A stretch of 39,673 bases of DNA from a virus (IMGVR_UViG_3300045988_165115), one strand, 5' to 3'; positions 1 to 39,673 are shown, numbered from the stretch's first letter. Numbers and translations: made by a program. Notes: generated by a model not told the origin, from the letters alone.

Positions 1-26
1 GGTAGCTCCCTCTGACAAAAGCAGGA

Positions 27-416
27 ATGATGCCATTTTCTCGTTATTTCTGCATTTTCATAAACGTTGGTTTGGGAGAATTATCTCTGGCTGGCACTGC
101 ATCGGGTGTCATTGGTCTGAATGGGTATGTAACGATTCCGTTAATTATTTCAGGTTCCCGGAGAACACTGATTATTCAGTGGGGGCAGGCGAGATTTGGT
201 GGGTCTGGTGGTGAAGATGCCGGATATCTTAATGATTTTCCTTTTGCCTTTCCGTCAGCATGTTATGGAATGATAGTTAGTCATGTGGGGCATACACCTT
301 CAGGCGCAGGAATCCTGTCGGCTTCTGCAATTACATCAAATCAGTTCCGCGGTTTTTCAAGCATAGCGACTGCTGCAAATGCTGTATTAGGTCGTTATAT
401 CGCTATAGGGGGTTAA
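27..416 (+). CDS. silent alternative tail-fibre C-terminal cassette (inverted orientation); the functional part begins at the crossover site near 60-80, and the ATG at 27 is probably not a real start
   Basis: Gly/Ser-rich fibre-tip-like translation; encodes NVGLGE at the crossover site, matching NLGLRE in the expressed fibre gene on the minus strand. Confidence 0.55.
   Translation: MMPFSRYFCIFINVGLGELSLAGTASGVIGLNGYVTIPLIISGSRRTLIIQWGQARFGGSGGEDAGYLNDFPFAFPSACYGMIVSHVGHTPSGAGILSASAITSNQFRGFSSIATAANAVLGRYIAIGG
58..83. repeat. hix/gix-like inversion crossover site, left copy of an inverted pair
   Basis: Its reverse complement AATTCTCCCAAACCAACGTTTATGA closely matches TTCTCTCAAACCAAGGTTTTGAAG at 1585-1608; the shared core AAACCAAGGTTT resembles Hin/Gin/Pin recombination sites. 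Confidence 0.6.
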
Positions 417-417
417 T

Positions 418-855
418 ATGTTTTATAGTCCATCATTAAACATTTTTGTGAATCCTGCGCTTAAGGATGATTACATTAATGCAAATTCATGGCCAGATGA
501 TGCTCTGGCTGTCAGTGATGATGTTTATAATGAATTTGCAATCAATACGCCCCCATATGACAAAATTCGTGTTGCAGGAAAAAATGGATTACCCACATGG
601 GCACTAATACCTCCACCATCGCATGAAGAACTTATTCAACAGGCAGAATCAGAAAGGCAATTATTGCTTAATCAGGCCAACGAATACATGAACAGTAAAC
701 AATGGCCCGGTAAAGCCGCTATTGGTCGTCTGAAAGACGAGGAACTGGCACTATATAATTTGTGGCTGGATTACCTGGACGCACTGGAACTGGTGGATAC
801 CTCCAGTGCTCCAGATATTGAATGGCCTACACCTCCGGTAACTCAGGCCAGCTAA
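418..855 (+). CDS. tail fibre assembly protein (Tfa-like), alternative copy inside the invertible segment
   Basis: C-terminal motif [22 protein letters not shown] parallels [22 protein letters not shown] in the minus-strand Tfa; tail-to-tail with that gene. Confidence 0.75.
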   Translation: MFYSPSLNIFVNPALKDDYINANSWPDDALAVSDDVYNEFAINTPPYDKIRVAGKNGLPTWALIPPPSHEELIQQAESERQLLLNQANEYMNSKQWPGKAAIGRLKDEELALYNLWLDYLDALELVDTSSAPDIEWPTPPVTQAS

Positions 856-1252
856 TCTCAGGAGCCGTCGAAGTGTCGACGGCTTTTACTTCTTTTTTGT
901 AGTCCATCCAGGCGGATAGTTTTTCTTTATCTGTACTGCTGATATCACCAAGCATTAATTCCACTCGCCAGTCAGCTGTGACATTATCGGCATGAGCAAG
1001 TAACTGCATTCGCTGATTTTCAGCACGTGCGACATAATCAATCGCCGGAGATTTCAGTACCGGTAAACCATTTTCATCTGACGTGATTAATTTACCCCCT
1101 TCCTGCTGTCCGGCAATTAATTCATTGTATAAGTCTGTACTTATCTCAACAATGTCAGCAGGCATGTCGCTGTTTATACCATCAAAGAAAAAACCATTAG
1201 TCGATTTTGAGAAATAAATCATAGATATACCTATACACCGATTGCTACCCAA
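827..1252 (-). CDS. tail fibre assembly protein (Tfa-like), currently expressed orientation
   Basis: 141 aa; conserved Tfa C-terminal motif; start overlaps the end of the upstream fibre gene. Confidence 0.75.
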
Positions 1253-1887
1253 AAACAGGACCTTTCATATTTGACAATTTCTCCCTGAGATATACCGCCA
1301 ACAATTATATAGAACTGTGATTTGGTGATATCAGAACAGTTCGCAATGCCCATTGCAGATATACCCGCCACCGACGTTGTATGTGGTACAGCCAACAGCG
1401 CAAGTGAACGACTTGGGAATGTTACCGGGTAAGTCACCGTATAGTTTGATGCTCCACTGACTATACCCCACTGAATAATCAGACCTGAAGGGAGTTTTTG
1501 AAAACCCGTTGATGAAAGTGAACTGGCAAACGCCGCCATATCCGGAATTTGGTTTTGCTCGTTACCCACATTTCGTTTTGCCGCTTCTCTCAAACCAAGG
1601 TTTTGAAGAGCCGTTTTCACCGTGCCGTCCGATTTGATATCGCCAAACGGATTTTTGCGACTTAACAGCAGCGCACGAAGCGCGGTAAGCAGCTGGTCAT
1701 GCCGCCCCTTCTCCAGGCTGGCACCGGATGCCTCCACCACGCTGCAGAGCTCTTCCTGCAACATGTCAAAGTAGTCATCATCCAGATCGGTGGCAGGCGT
1801 GCCGGTCTGGGGGTTACCACGGGTAAAACCGTTCTTACCCGCGCCGAACTTATCCTTCTGCGCGGTTTTCGTGTCTATACGATGCAT
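1231..1887 (-). CDS. short side tail fibre protein; the crossover site lies inside it at the constant/variable junction
   Basis: 218 aa directly after the baseplate genes; contains the crossover site at codons about 93-100 (ALQNLGLRE). Confidence 0.7.
1585..1610. repeat. hix/gix-like inversion crossover site, right copy
   Basis: TTCTCTCAAACCAAGGTTTTGAAGAG, an imperfect palindrome around AAACCAAGGTTT, inverted relative to the copy at 58-83. Confidence 0.6.
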
Positions 1888-1890
1888 GGA

Positions 1891-2475
1891 TTACTCCGGA
1901 TATTTAAAAATTACGTAGGTATGCGACGGGCAGAGTTTGTTAAGCACACATTCGACAACTGTGTCGCCCCAGATACGCAGTGCGGAATCACAGGGATCGC
2001 CACATGTCATCCAGGTGGTGTTGGTGGCGGCTGGGATGTTGACCTGCCCGTAATACCGCCATTCAGGCGCGTTCACAGCGTCAGTACAGGCCGATGAGCA
2101 GGTGAACGTGCTTTTGTCGTATCGCGTGATAGTGGCATCTGGTCTGCCCAGGGCAGCAAGCTGTGCAAGATAAAAATCCTCGTTGATGCCGCCCGCCAGG
2201 TTAACCTTCGCATCCAGCCGTTGCTGACGCTGGCGAAGGGTCTGTGTCCCTGCGGGAATACATTCATCCGGCAGACCGCACAGACGCTCCCAGCGGTTTA
2301 TCAGTTCAGTGGTGGTGCGCGGATCCAGCTCCCGCATCAGGGCATCCGCACGCTGATGAACGCGGGATAATGACGGTGCCGCACCGGCAATCGCCGGATC
2401 GCTGGCTGACCACGCCGGACCGGGGGGCAACAGTGCCGACAACAGACGGATGTAATCATCGTTTGTCACGTCCAT
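1891..2475 (-). CDS. tail/baseplate protein, Mu gp48-like (DUF2313)
   Basis: 194 aa immediately downstream of the baseplate J-like gene; the e14 tail cluster has the same order. Confidence 0.6.
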
Positions 2476-3524
2476 GAAATCGTCCCCAGTACCGCCAGTT
2501 CATTTTTTGCAATGGAGATATTGTCTGCCGGTGCAAGCAACTGATGGCTGTATTCCCCGTTCGCACCGGAAATCGCCTCACTGATACGCGATACCTTCAG
2601 TTCTCCCTGCGGATAACCATCACGCAGCAGGAACGAACGCAACTCCGCGGTGATGGCAGCCCGTATTTCCGGTGTGTCCGGCGTCACACGGATATGAAAA
2701 TCCACCGTATGTGCCACCGGCCTGAACACATACAAATCAGAGCCTGCCACCGGGGCCAGTGGCCCGATATGTTGTCTTGCTGCCGTTTCCGTTGATTCTT
2801 CCGGAATGGGATTAATCAGGTCACTGCTGGCAATCATCACACCGACAGTCCCCGTTCCCATCCAGTGACGGTATGTCCATGCGCGGGTAATGCCGGGCAC
2901 TTCTTTAGCCCAGACGACATAGTCCCTGTCAGCCCCGCCCTGCGGCGTCCAGTAATACCGCTCAATGACGCGGGCTCGCCACGTTTCCAGCTCTTCAGTA
3001 TCAAATCCACCTGTCAGGGTATCTGCCACGCCGGAAGACGGCAGACCATTAACCGGCGTGACCAGGATTAATGACGTACCGTCGTCAGCGTTACCGACCG
3101 CGCCTGCACTTGAGCAGGCGATCGGCACGCGCAGGACACCACCGGAGCTGGTTGCATCGGCAGTTGCCGTGTACTGAACCAGGTCATCGCGCTGAATAAC
3201 ACTCCCGGCGGTCACCTTCAGGCCATCGCTGACACCTTCCCAGCGCATATACCCGCTGGCAGCAGTGGCCCCCTTGCGCGGACACCGTTTCATCGCAGCA
3301 TGTCGCGCCAGCCAGGACTCATCGCACAGGTCAGGCAGCATGTTCATCGCCAGATAATCGATGTACCCGTAAACCGTATGCAGCGCCGCCGCATACACCT
3401 TTGCCCGCACGTCTTCATCCATGCGCCGGAGCGTGTCGCTGACGTCCAGCCTGGCGAATAAATCGTTACGGAGCATACTGATATTTTCTGCCAGCGTCGG
3501 GCGCTGAAATTCACTGTCCGCCAT
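2466..3524 (-). CDS. baseplate J-like protein (Mu gp47 family)
   Basis: 352 aa in a translationally coupled baseplate cluster; size and position fit. Confidence 0.7.
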
Positions 3525-19214: not shown

Positions 19215-19738
19215 ATGTACTCCAATGAAGAAACCAGCGAAATAGCTGCCTTCATTCGTAGTAAACCTTTTTCATCAACGCAGTAATGGATTCTTTGAAG
19301 AGTCGCAATCAATACAACTCACTAATGGAGAGACTTGTCTCACGCATGAGACAAATTTCCCGTTTGAATTAATGGACACTATAGAGGGACAGAATGCCTT
19401 CCTCACTCGAATCACATCAATTAAGGAAGTTCAACATGTTTCATTCCACAAGTCATCAGGCTGTAATTATGGCAGCATCAGTTTGTGCCACAGACCTTTT
19501 CCGCTTCACTTTGAGCCTGATTCATTTCTACCTGACCGGCTCGCTTCTATCTTTTTAATCCCCGCTTTATCCAAATTGCATTGCCAGAATGCCGACAACA
19601 GACTGACATTCAAATCCTGACTACCTCCAATAGTCTGACCGTACACCTATATAGTTTTAATTTTCATCAATCCATTTAACTATCGTTTAATTGTTGTCAC
19701 ATAGGATTCTGCCGTTTTTAACAATGCAGGATAATAAG

Positions 19739-20032
19739 ATGAAAAAAATGTTGTTTTCTGCCGCTCTGGCAATGCTTATTACAGGATGTGCTCAACAGAC
19801 GTTTACTGTTGGAAACAAACCTACAGCAGTAACACCAAAGGAAACCATCACCCATCATTTCTTCGTTTCGGGAATTGGACAGCAGAAAACTGTTGATGCA
19901 GCCAAAATTTGTGGCGGCGCAGAAAATGTTGTTAAAACAGAAACCCAGCAAACATTCGTAAATGGATTGCTCGGTTTTATTACTTTAGGCATTTATACTC
20001 CGCTGGAAGCGCGTGTGTATTGCTCACAATAA
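19739..20032 (+). CDS. bor: Bor lipoprotein (serum-resistance factor)
   Basis: Translation MKKMLFSAALAMLITGCAQQTFTV... is nearly identical to lambda Bor as recalled; lipobox LITGC; AGGA Shine-Dalgarno 7 nt upstream; opposite to the lysis genes as in lambda. Confidence 0.9.
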   Translation: MKKMLFSAALAMLITGCAQQTFTVGNKPTAVTPKETITHHFFVSGIGQQKTVDAAKICGGAENVVKTETQQTFVNGLLGFITLGIYTPLEARVYCSQ

Positions 20033-21619: not shown

Positions 21620-22795
21620 ATGGATATAACTTGTTTAGAATGTGGCAATGTTCTTGACGACCCAACTGTAGCTTGCGATAAATGCGGTGCCACGCCTCAT
21701 GTTGTAGTGCTGGGCAAACAATCGTACTTTCCTATTGGTGCTGTAACAGCAAATCTTGAAAAAAATGATTCAAGAGCATTTGATTATCGATTAGGTGAAG
21801 TTTGGGATCTAAAAAATGAAGTCACATCTGAATTCATAACCAGAATTGAGAAAAAATTTAGCCGAAAAAACAAATTTCATAACTTCCTAGACTCAGATCA
21901 CAACCCTTCATCCATTCCTACGATCCTAAAAAAATACATTAATAAAAATAATGAATTCATTGATTTATCTAGAGCTATAATAGAGAAGCTTAAACATAAT
22001 GCTAATAACGAATCGAGAGTTGCCCAACTTCAGGGGGGGAGCGTTGTTTTCATCCACTATAAGTCTACCGAACCAGAGGATTTGGGGAAACTTCTAATCG
22101 TAATGGTTGATAAACAAAGCGCCTATGACTTTGATTCGGATAAGTTGACCCCAACAAGATTAAATCCAATTAATACCGATGCCTTACGGCAGGCTGCGAT
22201 GTTCGATTTAACTTTATTCGAAGCCAGTTATCCAGAAAACAAGGGTGACTCATATGTACATTTCTTGCAAGGTAAATCTAAAAGCGATTTTTTCAAAGAC
22301 TCATTAGGTTGCCGACATGATTCGGACAATAAAAGAAGCATTCAGCAATTATTCAGTGCTATAGATATTTTTGCTAGTAAAAACTCACTCGGTCGTGTAC
22401 TGCGTGATACTATTGACAATGAAGTTAAATCCTTACTGGAAAAAAAATCAAAAGATAAACACGGAAATAAGTCCGTTAAGATAGAGGATATTTCAAAAAT
22501 AATTGACTCATGCCTGACTGATTCACACAAATGTAAGGGAACGTTTGTCGATTTTGTTAATCTTAATGGTTTCCAGATTGACCCTCAATTTGAACCAACT
22601 CCTAAAGCAGCTGAAAGCGCGCTTACAATTGAAGTGGCAGATAACGACAATAATTTTAAGTTGAAAATAATGCGTGGAGCTATTGGAGACGAAAAGTCAA
22701 ATAAGCCTGTAATTCTCACTGACAACAAATGCGAAATTGTGATAAAATTGAGTCAGGCAAATTATGATGAACTCAAAAGATATAGAGACAGCTAA
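21620..22795 (+). CDS. zinc-ribbon plus NdpA/YejK-like (NA37) nucleoid-associated-protein-like domain protein; first gene of the cargo operon
   Basis: N-terminal CxxC-x12-CxxC; central region (GGSVVFIHY...LNPINTD...DLTLFE...YVHFLQGKS...DFFKDSLGC) follows the YejK/NdpA motif pattern as recalled; AT-rich; opposite strand to the late genes. Confidence 0.55.
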   Translation: MDITCLECGNVLDDPTVACDKCGATPHVVVLGKQSYFPIGAVTANLEKNDSRAFDYRLGEVWDLKNEVTSEFITRIEKKFSRKNKFHNFLDSDHNPSSIPTILKKYINKNNEFIDLSRAIIEKLKHNANNESRVAQLQGGSVVFIHYKSTEPEDLGKLLIVMVDKQSAYDFDSDKLTPTRLNPINTDALRQAAMFDLTLFEASYPENKGDSYVHFLQGKSKSDFFKDSLGCRHDSDNKRSIQQLFSAIDIFASKNSLGRVLRDTIDNEVKSLLEKKSKDKHGNKSVKIEDISKIIDSCLTDSHKCKGTFVDFVNLNGFQIDPQFEPTPKAAESALTIEVADNDNNFKLKIMRGAIGDEKSNKPVILTDNKCEIVIKLSQANYDELKRYRDS

Positions 22796-22797
22796 TA

Positions 22798-24012
22798 ATG
22801 ACAATTGCTGATGACTTATCAAGATTAGCGCAGATTATTAACGGAGCCTCAAGCAGAGTTGAGGGCTACTACACTGTCATAAGTCTTGAAGAAAGCATTG
22901 TTATTGTAAATAGTTCTGAAATAATTAGACTGTTACAATCTATAGGTTATAAAAAGGCAACAACCTGCATCGAAAATAATGAAATTTGGCTAGATCGCCA
23001 AGCTTCATCTTGGGATGATGCTATAATTTATGAGAATGTTGAGTCTTTTTGGTCTAGAGTAAACACCCAAAACGCTCTTCCGAAAAATTATATCATCGGA
23101 ACGCCGTTAATACTCCCTACTTCTAAGAATGAAAGCATCGAAAAAATCCATATTTTCTTTATGTGGAAAGATATCCTTTCATTAATTTCTGATCATCATA
23201 ACAGTGACTGCTCTGTCTTATTTTTCACCAATGAAGACAAAAGTTATACAGTCGAACTCACGCATTTTTTACAATATAGCGAGATTAATCGCTTATCGAA
23301 CTCGTCTCTTAAATATGAAATTATAAAGGAGCTTCTCGACACAATAAAAATCAATGATTTACACAAAAGCGAGCGCAAGCTCGTTATACGCTCAGCCATA
23401 AACGAAGTATTTAAAGCAAATGGTACGTTCAATTTCTTTGACTTGCTTAACTCTACTGAACTCGTCAGGAAAAAATATGATGAACTATATGAGATTTACA
23501 CAAAGAGGTTTTCTGTAAATAAAATTCTTAACGAACTCGATGAGAAAAATCTTGAGTTCACGAGTAAAATTAACGAATTCATATCATCTAATCAGACAAA
23601 AGCATTGACTATTCCCGGTGCATTAATAGCAGCTGGTGGCTTAGTGAAGGCTAATGAAACAACCGAAGCAATATTGATTATCGCAGGACTTTGGATGATA
23701 AAAAAAGTCAATTACATTTCTATTGAGATATTCAATGAAACATTCGACAACTTACGTTCTCGAGTGGAGTCCGCTTTCGATAAGTATTTAAAGTTTGAAG
23801 AAAATAAAGAAATCAAAGATAATGCAGATAGTATTAAGAGTAGCATTACAGGTTTGATTGATAAAGCTAAAAAAAGGATGAGAACTGTTAAATATCTCGC
23901 ATCAGCCATGTTTTATGGAGGCCTTATTTACGTTGGATATAAACAGTTCCCAGTCTTTTTTGAAAAATCGGCAGTAAATCTATTTTATTTTTTATGCCAT
24001 ACTATAAGCTAA
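22798..24012 (+). CDS. hypothetical membrane-associated protein, second gene of the cargo operon
   Basis: 404 aa; ATG 2 nt after the upstream stop; hydrophobic segments LTIPGALIAAGGLV, AILIIAGLWMI and YLASAMFYGGLIYVGY; 3' end overlaps the Q 3' end by 21 nt. Confidence 0.55.
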   Translation: MTIADDLSRLAQIINGASSRVEGYYTVISLEESIVIVNSSEIIRLLQSIGYKKATTCIENNEIWLDRQASSWDDAIIYENVESFWSRVNTQNALPKNYIIGTPLILPTSKNESIEKIHIFFMWKDILSLISDHHNSDCSVLFFTNEDKSYTVELTHFLQYSEINRLSNSSLKYEIIKELLDTIKINDLHKSERKLVIRSAINEVFKANGTFNFFDLLNSTELVRKKYDELYEIYTKRFSVNKILNELDEKNLEFTSKINEFISSNQTKALTIPGALIAAGGLVKANETTEAILIIAGLWMIKKVNYISIEIFNETFDNLRSRVESAFDKYLKFEENKEIKDNADSIKSSITGLIDKAKKRMRTVKYLASAMFYGGLIYVGYKQFPVFFEKSAVNLFYFLCHTIS

Positions 24013-35600: not shown

Positions 35601-36716
35601 TTAAATTAAATCAAATAGCCCATGTTCATCTATAGCCTTTGAACTAATTAAGTTCGCGGCTTCTATGTCATTGTCACTTGCCTCAGAAATAAGGAAAAAT
35701 GAATCAACATGATTTTGCAAAATAATTTCCTTATACTTCTTGAGCCATTGTAATTTACCTGTAGTGAACAATACTTTACGCGGTAGCAAAATACGGCTAA
35801 AAACTGATGGAAGATACTCACTTCTATTAAATGGAATAAAAGGGTCGCCTAAAGAAAGAATAGTTAGACGATTAAATTCACCGTGCGAATTCAATTTTTC
35901 AGCTGATTTGGCTATACCACTTGGTAAAAAAACACCTGTCTTGATACCGTTGCGTAAAGCAACAACAGCCATCATTTTATCAAAGGCAGTACCTCCAAAT
36001 AATAAGGAATATCCTTTTTTAACAGAAAGATCAATAGTATCAAGAACAACTTGTTTTTCTATATCACTTGGTGACGTGCTCGAAATTATCGAAAGATCAA
36101 AATCAGTAAATAACTGCCCAGTATAATAAAGATTTTTGCCGGTGAAAGTTGACAACTTTAAAGGAAACATTTTATCATCATGCTTAATTTCAGATACATT
36201 AAGATCTGTTAAGGATGGATAGTTAAAGTTTGGTGAGGCTTTTCCGTGTTTATTATTTTTTGATGCCTGCGGACTAAAAACTAGAATTTCATTTTTATTA
36301 TTACACAGGTAATCCTGTATCATTTTTTTTACAATATCCCAATCAAGACCACCGTGACCACAACCTAAAGCTGGCAGGGTGATTGTTTTTCCATGTTTAT
36401 TATCCAAATATTTCGAGAGCCAATGCAGTCCTTTTTCGATATATTCGTACTTAGACTTATTTCTCCAATGATCCTTGGTGGGAAAGTTTATGATTTCTAT
36501 TTCCTTACCATACGTATCATTACCTTTCCAAACAGCTGGTCTTCCTGGAGATATTTCTCCTTTTTTACACAGCAATACGTATTCATTATACATTTCAGGA
36601 AACTTATTCTTAAAAGCAAAAGCAACCCCTGCCCCCATTACACCAACACAATTAACTGTATTAATTCTAATGTCAGCAGCATAATCGAAAAAATCACCAT
36701 CAACATATCTAATCAT
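35601..36716 (-). CDS. macrodomain protein (TARG1/DarG-type) with a C-terminal Rossmann/SLOG-like domain; candidate DarG-like partner
   Basis: Start set at MIRYVDG, preceded by AAGGAGG; macro motifs GDFFDYAADIRINTVNCVGVMGAGVAFAFKNKF and LPALGCGHGGLDW resemble TARG1/DarG; C-terminal LLFGGTAFDKMMAVVA glycine-rich loop; AT-rich. Confidence 0.6.
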   Translation of the reverse strand: MIRYVDGDFFDYAADIRINTVNCVGVMGAGVAFAFKNKFPEMYNEYVLLCKKGEISPGRPAVWKGNDTYGKEIEIINFPTKDHWRNKSKYEYIEKGLHWLSKYLDNKHGKTITLPALGCGHGGLDWDIVKKMIQDYLCNNKNEILVFSPQASKNNKHGKASPNFNYPSLTDLNVSEIKHDDKMFPLKLSTFTGKNLYYTGQLFTDFDLSIISSTSPSDIEKQVVLDTIDLSVKKGYSLLFGGTAFDKMMAVVALRNGIKTGVFLPSGIAKSAEKLNSHGEFNRLTILSLGDPFIPFNRSEYLPSVFSRILLPRKVLFTTGKLQWLKKYKEIILQNHVDSFFLISEASDNDIEAANLISSKAIDEHGLFDLI

Positions 36717-37186
36717 AAAACCTCCTTTGGTCAGAGTATACATCCTTATTTCTGGCTCTTCAATTCTATTGTCAAAAACTTTTACAAAGTCTGCATCAGT
36801 AAAACTGATGGCGCATTTTAAAATTAAAATCAATATGTCCATATCAAACGTTATATTTGTTATTTTTTGTATTTATTATTCATATCCATCATGTGCTATT
36901 AAATCGCCCAAAAGAACATAATAAATTATGTGCACCACTTTCTTCTTATTGAATTTTGGATTACATTACGATCTAAATTAGATCTTTTGCCAATATCATA
37001 AACATATGCAGCAAACGTTGCAACAAGCTGTTCTCATTCTAACAGTTAGTAGAATATAAACTCTGTAATTAGCACACTGAATTCCCTTCATCTATGAGTT
37101 ACAACATCCTTTAAGTGAATAGTATTGTTAGTTTAAATCTATTAATATCATTCATAAAACTATTTTATATAGTTAAAGTCATTATA

Positions 37187-37423: not shown

Positions 37424-38770
37424 TCATAAACTGTTCCCCTGCAATCTTTGGAGAACTTCATCCCGGAGATCATCGATCCCGTCAGAAACCTGAGCTAACC
37501 AAACTTGACTTAATGAGCCAATATCAGCCTTACTTAGGGCTACTAACATATTGATATCTTCAGAAGATGTAACTATATCGAACAACTGATTTTTATTCCT
37601 CCCTTTAGCTACTATTTCCCCCAATAAATCATCATACGTAACTAACATCATTATTTTTCTAACTAGATCGGTTTGTATGACTGGCAGATCTTCTGTCAAA
37701 ATTCGTTGTAGCATCGCAAGTGACTTCCTAGGATGCTCTCCATCTGCCTCATGCATGTAATTATTATTCCAACGTGTTTTAGGCCCTTTGCCTATATCAT
37801 GCAAATAAGCGGCCAACTCCAAAACTTCCTGATGAATAGAGTCTAATTGATAAAACTCTGGTGAATTAACTACAAGACTAGCCACTCGTCGACTATGAGA
37901 GCCAACATCTTCATTATGAGGCCCGTAGCTCGTCCCCAATCCATCGATATCTTCAAGCTCTTGGATGGAGGAGAAATTACCACGAATTGCACTTAGAGCA
38001 TCACTAATACTTTGAAATTTTGGCCTCGTTTCTCGTTGAAATGAAGTTACATATTCAATAGCTTCATCAAAAAGCATTTTTAACACTACCGGTCCCGTGA
38101 CTAAGGATGAGGACCAGTTTCCAGGTTGATAATAATAATGTTGAAAATCACCCTCAACAATATTTGGTGGAACAATACCTTTGTTCTGGAAAATACTCCT
38201 CACAATATCAGACATAGAACGATTCCATGTAATTATCTGATTTATTTCGCTTAAAGAGACATGATCTGGCAGCAAAAGTTCTGCCATCTTTTTATGCCTC
38301 TGAGTCTCGTCAGCATAACCCCATGCATTATTATCTATGGTAGCCCAATCTAATACATCAAGCTGGTCAGCTTGAGTATTACCAGAATAAAAGTTCGGTG
38401 GATTAACTGTATTTGCGGAAGCATCTGTAAAATATGACCCATTCCTTGTTTCGAGTGATAATATAGAAACTGAAAGATAGATAATAAATTGCTGATCTAC
38501 ATTTTTTTTATGAAGAACAGACAATTGCATGGGCGTTTTTTTTGCAAAATAAAAAGGAACATAATCATGAACACAACGACCATTCGTATTAGGCACCTGC
38601 ATCACTGCCCTACGCCCCTGTATTCCTTCATCAGCAACATTCACATGTGATATACGACGTGCAATTTTCTGATTAGTCGAAAACAGCCCAGTTTCAATTA
38701 TTGATTCAAGATTATCTACTGACGTAAAGTGATATGCATTTCGGTGTCTATGGTGAACAGGAACTGTCAT
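37424..38770 (-). CDS. DarT-like (DUF4433) DNA ADP-ribosyltransferase domain fused to a C-terminal HD phosphohydrolase domain
   Basis: N-terminal YHFTSVDNLESIIETGL, HDYVPFYFAKKTPM, YFTDASANT and AELLL match DarT motifs including the catalytic glutamate position; C-terminal H...LHDIGKG HD signature; GGGGGA Shine-Dalgarno upstream. Confidence 0.6.
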   Translation of the reverse strand: MTVPVHHRHRNAYHFTSVDNLESIIETGLFSTNQKIARRISHVNVADEGIQGRRAVMQVPNTNGRCVHDYVPFYFAKKTPMQLSVLHKKNVDQQFIIYLSVSILSLETRNGSYFTDASANTVNPPNFYSGNTQADQLDVLDWATIDNNAWGYADETQRHKKMAELLLPDHVSLSEINQIITWNRSMSDIVRSIFQNKGIVPPNIVEGDFQHYYYQPGNWSSSLVTGPVVLKMLFDEAIEYVTSFQRETRPKFQSISDALSAIRGNFSSIQELEDIDGLGTSYGPHNEDVGSHSRRVASLVVNSPEFYQLDSIHQEVLELAAYLHDIGKGPKTRWNNNYMHEADGEHPRKSLAMLQRILTEDLPVIQTDLVRKIMMLVTYDDLLGEIVAKGRNKNQLFDIVTSSEDINMLVALSKADIGSLSQVWLAQVSDGIDDLRDEVLQRLQGNSL

Positions 38771-39334: not shown

Positions 39335-39673
39335 AGTATATAAAAATTATGTATTCAACTCGCTGATATTTAATCATAAATATTATTTTCTTGTCTTTGT
39401 ATTAGCCAAAATCAACTTTATTCAACCGTTTGATTTCATTGACGTTCGTTTTTATTTTGGGGAAAGATTTTCTCTACCATTTATATCAAAATTACAAGTC
39501 TACATTTTATTAACATCTCAATACATGTGTGGCCTTGCAAGCCATTGCGAGGCCTTATGTGTCTCAGTTTTGTCCCGCCTTGTATTACGACTTGCATAGC
39601 CAATGAAGATAAACGTGACGACAAACAAAGCAGCTGTCTTCTTTTCTTTCACACTTTCCCCACTCAGCAGCAT

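Follow-up and report, generated by a model that had tools for sequence, protein, structure and literature searches.

We analyzed a 39,673-nucleotide stretch of viral DNA (IMGVR_UViG_3300045988_165115; hereafter, the window, with positions counted from its first letter) and found at its left end a tail-fibre switch, namely an invertible segment of the Din family (Hin/Gin/Cin/Pin). Our preferred reading, to which we assign a probability of roughly 0.7, is that this segment is an allele of the e14 P segment of Escherichia coli K-12, that the accompanying invertase gene, pin, has been cut down to a remnant, and that a Din-type invertase inverts the segment in trans. The assignment to the e14 P segment follows from the identity of the crossover sites, the neighbouring genes, and the attachment site. 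The system is of a known kind and its novelty is modest; it would lie in the orphaned-yet-active state of the switch.

The invertible segment occupies positions 67-1598, with 1,530 bp between site centres, and is present as its exact reverse complement in MS1657 relative to the window and EC28, and in 22-250 relative to 22-245. At either end lies a 26-bp site; the two are inverted and have central dinucleotides that match without being palindromic, the arrangement that marks the Din family. Site L, of the pix type, lies at 55-80 (TTTTCATAAACGTTGGTTTGGGAGAA; TTTTCATAAACG TT GGTTTGGGAGAA, with the central dinucleotide at 67-68), and site R at 1585-1610 (TTCTCTCAAACCAAGGTTTTGAAGAG; TTCTCTCAAACC AA GGTTTTGAAGAG, with the central dinucleotide at 1597-1598). 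The two match at 19 of 26 positions and have the central TT/AA in common. Over all 26 positions, site L equals the pix site that lies next to pinE in K-12 e14, and site R agrees at 23 of 26 with the K-12 pix site in stfP; their agreement with Mu gix is 17-18/26 (17/26 for site L). The distance from the centre of site L to the invertase start codon is 67.5 bp in the lineage of the window, in K-12, and in Mu (gixR to gin). Both sites are translated in frame, as NVGLGE and NLGLRE.

An earlier examination of this DNA from its sequence alone (hereafter, the sequence-only reading) had proposed an invertible tail-fibre cassette between gix/hix-like sites, arranged as in the Mu G or e14 P segment. The site sequences, the layout, and the evidence for natural inversion described below all bear this out, as do the alignments with pix and gix and the in-frame translation of both sites. 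Its right site coincides with ours, while its left site, given as 58-83, was 3 nt out of register; likewise, the core it proposed, AAACCAAGGTTT, is exact at site R, but site L reads AAACGTTGGTTT.

The repeat itself was statistically unremarkable. An inverted pair matching at 19/26 is not beyond chance, as 70% of shuffles of the 1.9-kb region gave a pair of at least 19/26. The core motif was not enriched (3 matches against 1.56 expected), and a search for exact repeats did not list the L/R pair, whose exact core is only 8 nt long. We therefore dropped the repeat as evidence. The sites are real on other grounds: their identity to K-12 pix, the in-frame outcome of an in silico flip, and natural inversions at exactly these positions.

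To survey orientation, we compared positions 1-3000 of the window, together with a version of this region flipped in silico, with 5,426 complete E. coli genomes by megablast, counting a genome when the match was collinear over at least 80%. Fourteen genomes were oriented as the window and nine were flipped. Both orientations occurred among close relatives: at 99.9% identity, EC28, A42, VTB96929v, and S87 share the orientation of the window and MS1657 is flipped, and at 99.3-99.4% identity, ESBL 15, MB06102, 19AR0254, 22-245, and CFSAN061769 are oriented as the window and 442/2, OkiPb01685, and 22-250 are flipped.

Two comparisons locate and date the event. MS1657 carries the segment of the window as an exact reverse complement, with 0 mismatches and identical flanks. 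The G/A difference at site position 21 moved with the segment and the G/C difference at position 12 stayed behind. The crossover therefore fell within TTGGTTTG, which includes the central dinucleotide. Genomes 22-245 and 22-250 come from a common source, have chromosomes of 5,073,334 and 5,073,329 bp, and carry the locus at an equal coordinate, each with the pin remnant described below. The two sequences agree at every base over 3,566 nt on one side of the locus and 4,092 nt on the other, whereas the intervening block of 1,532 nt is an exact reverse complement. In a control region of 50 kb located 2 Mb away, the two differ only in one single-nucleotide polymorphism in a 23S rRNA gene and a small cluster of indels upstream of a 16S rRNA gene; hence, they are near-isogenic, and the flip is recent.

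Crossover thus occurred at the site centres, and the pix sites were the endpoints of natural inversion in three independent pairs. The segment also contains a perfect 17-nt inverted repeat, CTGATTATTCAGTGGGG (168-184 and 1466-1482), which encodes LIIQWG in both Gp53-like domains. Although its exact match exceeds that of the crossover-site core in length, this repeat was never an inversion endpoint, which argues against homology-driven inversion. Inversion at exactly these sites is repeated and recent in natural strains.

Positions 1-1900 hold four genes, two per strand. On the minus strand lies the gene of the currently expressed tail fibre (1231-1887; 218 aa), with a Gp53-like_C domain at residues 131-217 by Pfam and an N-terminus like that of K-12 StfP. 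The constant part, codons 1 to ~96 (1599-1887), is near-identical to the StfP N-terminus; it stays in place and receives either C-terminus. The variable, C-terminal (receptor-binding) part (1231-1598), to which Pfam assigns the Gp53-like_C domain, falls inside the inverted block. It is followed on the same strand by the chaperone gene of the expressed cassette (827-1222; Pfam Caudo_TAP, E=1.8e-24; also annotated by PGAP in EC28 and S87). The plus strand encodes the silent, or orphan, fibre C-terminal cassette of 129 aa (27-416; Pfam Gp53-like_C, E=1.8e-12), whose own 12-residue leader, MMPFSRYFCIFI, is read through site L, and the corresponding chaperone (418-855; Pfam Caudo_TAP, E=1.8e-33), which is 50% identical to K-12 TfaP over 101 aa. 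Positions 1-54 form the spacer between the invertase start codon and site L. These are the two fibre C-termini and two assembly genes that the sequence-only reading had described as standing tail-to-tail.

When the sites were recombined in silico at their central dinucleotides, the orphan C-terminus continued the reading frame of the constant N-terminus, yielding a 212-aa fibre, and the flipped genomes indeed have this gene annotated as a 639-nt coding sequence. The locus therefore offers two alternative coding ends on a constant start, each with a chaperone (fibres of 218 and 212 aa, two Gp53-like_C and two Caudo_TAP domains), as in the Mu/P1/e14 subtype, and the cassette produces in-frame fibres in either of the orientations found in nature.

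We then turned to the invertase. A tblastn search with PinE revealed no PinE-like open reading frame anywhere in the window. We examined seven genomes of the same haplotype (EC28, ESBL 15, 22-245, 22-250, MS1657, 442/2, and S87; 99.3-99.9% identity), and in every one the base to the left of position 1 is the A of a start codon, from which a 144-nt pseudogene annotated as "recombinase family protein" runs leftward. Beyond this stub follow a gene for a 629-aa DUF262 protein, the icd' attachment remnant, and then chromosomal genes; no intact invertase lies within 6 kb leftward in these seven genomes, so the adjacent invertase of the Din-family layout is missing from them. The stub follows pinE for about 136 nt, after which the two sequences part; about three quarters of the protein is gone, and the stub carries an Arg7-to-Cys substitution (R7C) in the conserved YVRVS motif. 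Truncated and substituted in this way, it cannot encode an invertase. Its sequence is identical in the six genomes that were compared base by base, and S87 has the same pseudogene in its annotation.

The source of the window almost certainly carries the stub too, judging by haplotype identity: positions 1-66, including the spacer, are identical to the stub haplotype (EC28, 22-245, 22-250, and MS1657) and show about 10 differences from the leader that accompanies an intact pin (K-12 and UPEC-245U). The sequence-only reading had expected a Pin-like invertase just upstream of position 1. This describes the ancestral design correctly: UPEC-245U, which has the same two cassettes at 97% identity, carries an intact 555-nt pinE at the predicted place with a GIY-YIG gene beyond it, and K-12 has an intact pinE at the equivalent place with mcrA beyond; the present lineage, however, has only the 144-nt pseudogene. 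The same reading held that the lack of an invertase to the left, combined with a single orientation, would speak against a switch. We found no invertase leftward in the seven same-haplotype genomes, but both orientations among genomes.

The protein encoded beyond the stub matches, over its full length, the PADLOC model of a type IV methyl-directed restriction enzyme (EC28 coordinates L001 3886-5775). The DUF262 gene is single-copy, is found in 305 of the 5,426 genomes, and never adjoins an intact pinE. Since all 305 genomes have the stub-DUF262 junction in common while diverging by up to 3%, the junction is old, and the flips must post-date it. A swap of defence cargo at this end of the prophage would have removed the 3' three quarters of pin.

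The part of pin that survives may matter for the reaction. Wild-type Din invertases are inactive without a Fis-bound enhancer; wild-type Hin requires one, a 65-bp element whose two ends each carry a Fis site and which natively lies ~99 bp from hix (PMC3798978). The title of Kahmann et al. 1985, cited in PMC3798978, places the Mu enhancer "within the invertase gene". Taking our enhancer coordinates from PMC3798978 and from homology, we found that the stub, which spans 67-203 bp from site L just outside the window, includes the stretch homologous to the Fis enhancer. In a four-way alignment, the blocks GTATCAACAAAT and TGTGCAGGATG were invariant from the stub to Mu gin, and the spacer keeps a TAATG element, noted for the hin enhancer in PMC3798978. 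Two candidate 15-bp G..C cores fall at stub nt 22-36 and 71-85; their distances to the site L centre are 95.5 and 144.5 bp. The locus would thus have sites and enhancer intact in cis and obtain its enzyme from elsewhere. Because the stub retains the enhancer-homologous region, catalysis in trans by another Din-family invertase appears the most likely route of inversion.

That Gin, Cin, Pin, and Hin can complement one another is classical knowledge. In the case of e14 itself, PinQ of prophage Qin has been reported to invert the K-12 P segment in trans (PMC12529663). Sequences like pinE are near-universal in E. coli: a query combining pinE with part of the DUF262 gene matched 4,826 of the 5,426 genomes, and DUF262 is present in only 305. 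MS1657 has two extra matching places on its chromosome, which we count as pinE-like because its DUF262 gene was confirmed to be single-copy; 22-245 and 22-250 have two extra places each, which would likewise be pinE-like if their DUF262 gene is single-copy. PinQ-type enzymes, whose protein sequences share only 38% identity with PinE, would escape blastn. The first 50 kb of p22-245, a 240-kb IncHI-type plasmid, contained no invertase. The split between window and flipped orientation was 5 to 1 in genomes without another pin-like gene and 6 to 6 in genomes with one.

Several points weigh against inversion in trans. The trans-acting invertase was not located, the data for 22-245, 22-250, and MS1657 being counts of extra pinE-like places only, and six stub genomes (EC28, A42, S87, A8, CFSAN061769, and L65) showed no second chromosomal pinE-like sequence by blastn. 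One of these, L65, is flipped although it has no such sequence. The relation between orientation and extra pin-like genes is suggestive and not significant at these numbers. In K-12, deletion of pinE locks the segment despite the presence of pinQ (PMC12529663); PinQ at its native level may be insufficient, or the pinE deletion may also have taken the enhancer. Fis would bind the stub if homology is a guide, and the second candidate Fis core is without an AT-rich centre. Finally, the window ends at the invertase start codon, and the state of its own invertase is deduced from the haplotype and not seen directly.

The late operon, on the minus strand, passes from the baseplate genes into the fibre gene, whose first ~96 codons (1887 to 1599) are fixed; the coding sequence of the receptor-binding C-terminus and, after it, the chaperone gene sit inside the 1.53-kb segment. 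Under the proposed mechanism, a serine invertase would bind both sites and be activated by Fis on the enhancer; it would cut at the central TT/AA, turn the half-sites by 180 degrees, and religate them. In this way the constant N-terminus would acquire the C-terminus of the 218-aa fibre or that of the 212-aa fibre, with the matching chaperone placed downstream. Replacement of the neighbouring defence-gene cargo would have reduced pin to its ~136-nt remnant, which keeps the enhancer-homologous stretch at the 5' end of the invertase gene, and the enzyme would be encoded elsewhere in the genome.

We give an even chance to a stronger form of this proposal, in which the switch is orphaned but active. 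The deletion would then have ended ~50 bp past the Fis enhancer, so that the stub would be a functional cis-element and not just debris, and an invertase borrowed from a different prophage would toggle the host range of a complete prophage in ~300 E. coli lineages. Alternatively, following the report on PinQ, the toggled product could be a headless fibre-tip protein. The K-12 equivalent of the orphan product (StfE/StfE2) has been reported to be made and to block T2 adsorption (PMC12529663).

Given that the cis invertase is clearly dead, the locus could instead be a frozen relic, in which switching ended with the truncation of pin and the orientations were either fixed earlier or brought beside the stub by homologous exchange between related prophages. 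The window orientation of five of the six stub genomes that have no other chromosomal pinE-like sequence would fit such a history. It nevertheless appears unlikely to us: the near-isogenic 22-245 and 22-250, both with the stub, differ by an exact inversion, opposite orientations are found in the 99.9% group as well as in the 99.3-99.4% group, and the flips came later than the old stub-DUF262 junction with its 305 genomes and up to 3% divergence.

An intact Pin-like invertase directly left of position 1 in the window's own genome, working in cis, would remove the need for a donor altogether, and pinE does occupy that position in UPEC-245U (97% identity, the same cassettes) and in K-12 e14. Yet positions 1-66 have the sequence of the stub haplotype, unlike both intact-pin haplotypes, the stub was present in 7/7 genomes examined at 99.3-99.9% identity, and the closest whole-window match, S87, has it as well, which leaves a functional cis gene quite improbable. 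We see even less room for a process without any invertase, be it RecA-dependent homologous recombination between short inverted repeats or an artefact of assembly. Either would accommodate the lack of a cis-encoded enzyme, but the crossover involves only 8-14 bp of shared identity, the perfect 17-nt repeat would be a better homology substrate and still each of three independent pairs has its endpoints at the pix sites, and the inversions are exact in independent assemblies from different laboratories.

The switch has several known counterparts. The K-12 e14 P segment and its invertase PinE, reportedly the work of Plasterk and van de Putte, are the closest; they were re-examined in PMC12529663. 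The two loci have in common the icd attachment site, the neighbours ymfQ, the J/gp47 baseplate gene, and intE/xisE, the constant fibre N-terminus, the sites (26/26 on the invertase side and 23/26), the 67.5-bp spacing, and the two fibre C-termini with two convergent chaperone genes overlapping by 29 nt. They differ in content: the segment measures 1.53 kb here and ~1.8 kb in K-12, and both variable cassettes are different alleles. Of the orphan C-terminus here, only the leader of 17 aa is related to StfE, and what the expressed C-terminus has in common with StfP is the Gp53-like fold alone. Furthermore, the prophage here is full length (~39 kb, with all virion genes) whereas the K-12 element is a 15-kb remnant, and here pinE is a stub and mcrA is replaced by the DUF262 type IV restriction gene.

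The Mu G segment with Gin resembles the present locus in its constant N-terminus, its alternative C-termini with cognate chaperones, its in-frame 26-bp sites, and its invertase, which is transcribed away from the segment starting 67.5 bp from the site centre. In Mu the enhancer lies within the 5' part of the invertase gene, and the first ~135 nt of the stub, where its putative counterpart would lie, align with gin in long invariant blocks. In contrast, the sites agree at only 17-18/26, the central dinucleotide is TC in Mu and TT here, the Mu segment is 3 kb long with much larger fibre genes, and Gin is intact and cis-acting. The action of PinQ on the e14 P segment (PMC12529663, 2025) provides a precedent for a serine recombinase from a different prophage flipping an e14-type fibre segment, as we infer here. 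However, PinE is intact in K-12 and the trans effect was seen mainly with overproduced PinQ (PMC12529663), whereas here the cis gene is destroyed, so that action in trans would be obligatory. Hin of the Salmonella H segment (flagellar phase variation) belongs to the same recombinase family and likewise acts on 26-bp sites; its Fis enhancer, ~99 bp from one of them, is located within the 5' part of hin (PMC3798978), where the stub here would have its putative counterpart. Hin differs in flipping a promoter and not coding cassettes, and in being encoded within its own invertible segment.

As host-range switches, invertible tail-fibre segments are textbook material, to which the switch itself adds little. 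If the segment keeps flipping while its cis invertase is destroyed, this would imply prophage-prophage or prophage-plasmid cross-talk in the control of phage host range. By sparing the enhancer region, the truncation would also provide a natural test of whether the enhancer must be in cis when the enzyme comes from elsewhere. Annotation pipelines and calls of prophage completeness would score such a switch as dead on account of its pseudogene recombinase; the comparative data suggest otherwise.

The switch sits at one end of an SfV-like, e14-family prophage that is integrated at icd and apparently complete, and the whole window consists of this prophage between the pin stub and icd. Membership in the e14 family is evident from the S87 annotation, Pfam, and comparison with K-12: integration is at icd with a duplicated icd 3' end, intE/xisE are present, and homologues of gp44-48 lead to ymfQ and then to the fibre gene, the immediate neighbour of the latter being a homologue of Mu gp48/YmfQ by Pfam. 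The closest whole-window match is S87, with 99.9% identity over 24 kb. Its annotation across the window includes terminase, portal, protease, capsid, sheath, tube, tape measure, and Mu-like baseplate genes, as well as lysis genes, Q, the repressor region, and xisE/intE. We also considered that the window might be a circularly permuted phage genome with its invertase elsewhere, and rejected this, as the tblastn search with PinE was empty and the right end consists of intE, a DarTG pair, and icd.

Other phages match this region in part. SfI, SfII, SfIV, and SfV match from position 1563/1584 to 3000 at ~96% nucleotide identity, from the baseplate genes through the constant part of the fibre. Their similarity ends 1-22 nt before site R, which indicates that the crossover site is also a mosaic, or module, boundary. 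Phage Cartapus matches positions 673-1607 and ends at site R from the opposite side.

Within the cassettes, the two chaperone genes converge and have 29 nt in common at their 3' ends (827-855), so that almost one and the same piece of DNA encodes, on either strand, a conserved C-terminal motif, ...DTS(S/T)AP(D/E)I.WP...; tfaP and tfaE of K-12 likewise overlap by 29 nt (L003 5518-5546). The orphan cassette begins with its own ATG and a conserved leader of 12-17 residues at positions 27-62 (MMPFSRYFCIFI; the K-12 counterpart is MPFACYFFIFI).

The prophage carries further cargo. The gene iss, for the increased serum survival lipoprotein, is annotated in S87 and corresponds by position (S87 L011 25369-25659) to 19691-20032 on the plus strand, with the terminase/HNH genes on one side and the lysis genes on the other. 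Two further plus-strand genes at 21620-24012, between the holin and Q genes, encode a nucleoid-associated protein and a 404-aa hypothetical protein. At the far right, the last ~340 nt (39336-39673, inside icd) lie outside the 99.9% match to S87, while the lower-coverage matches MS1657 and VTB96929v align to the end; the mismatch with S87 probably arises because icd alleles vary at their 3' end, close to the attachment site.

A DarTG-type toxin-antitoxin/defence pair lies within the prophage between intE and the icd attachment site (35601-36842 and 37424-38770, both on the minus strand). One protein of the pair has a macro domain (PADLOC DarG, E=7e-58); the other is a fusion of a DarT ADP-ribosyltransferase with an HD domain (PADLOC DarT, E=1e-42; Pfam DarT and HD). 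MS1657, VTB96929v, and A42 have a gene for a "P-loop ATPase, Sll1717 family" in the matched region in place of DarTG, and this position therefore resembles a slot in which cargo can be exchanged. On the opposite side of the prophage, the slot beyond pin is occupied by DUF262 here, by mcrA in K-12, and by GIY-YIG in UPEC-245U, which suggests a second hotspot for defence cargo.

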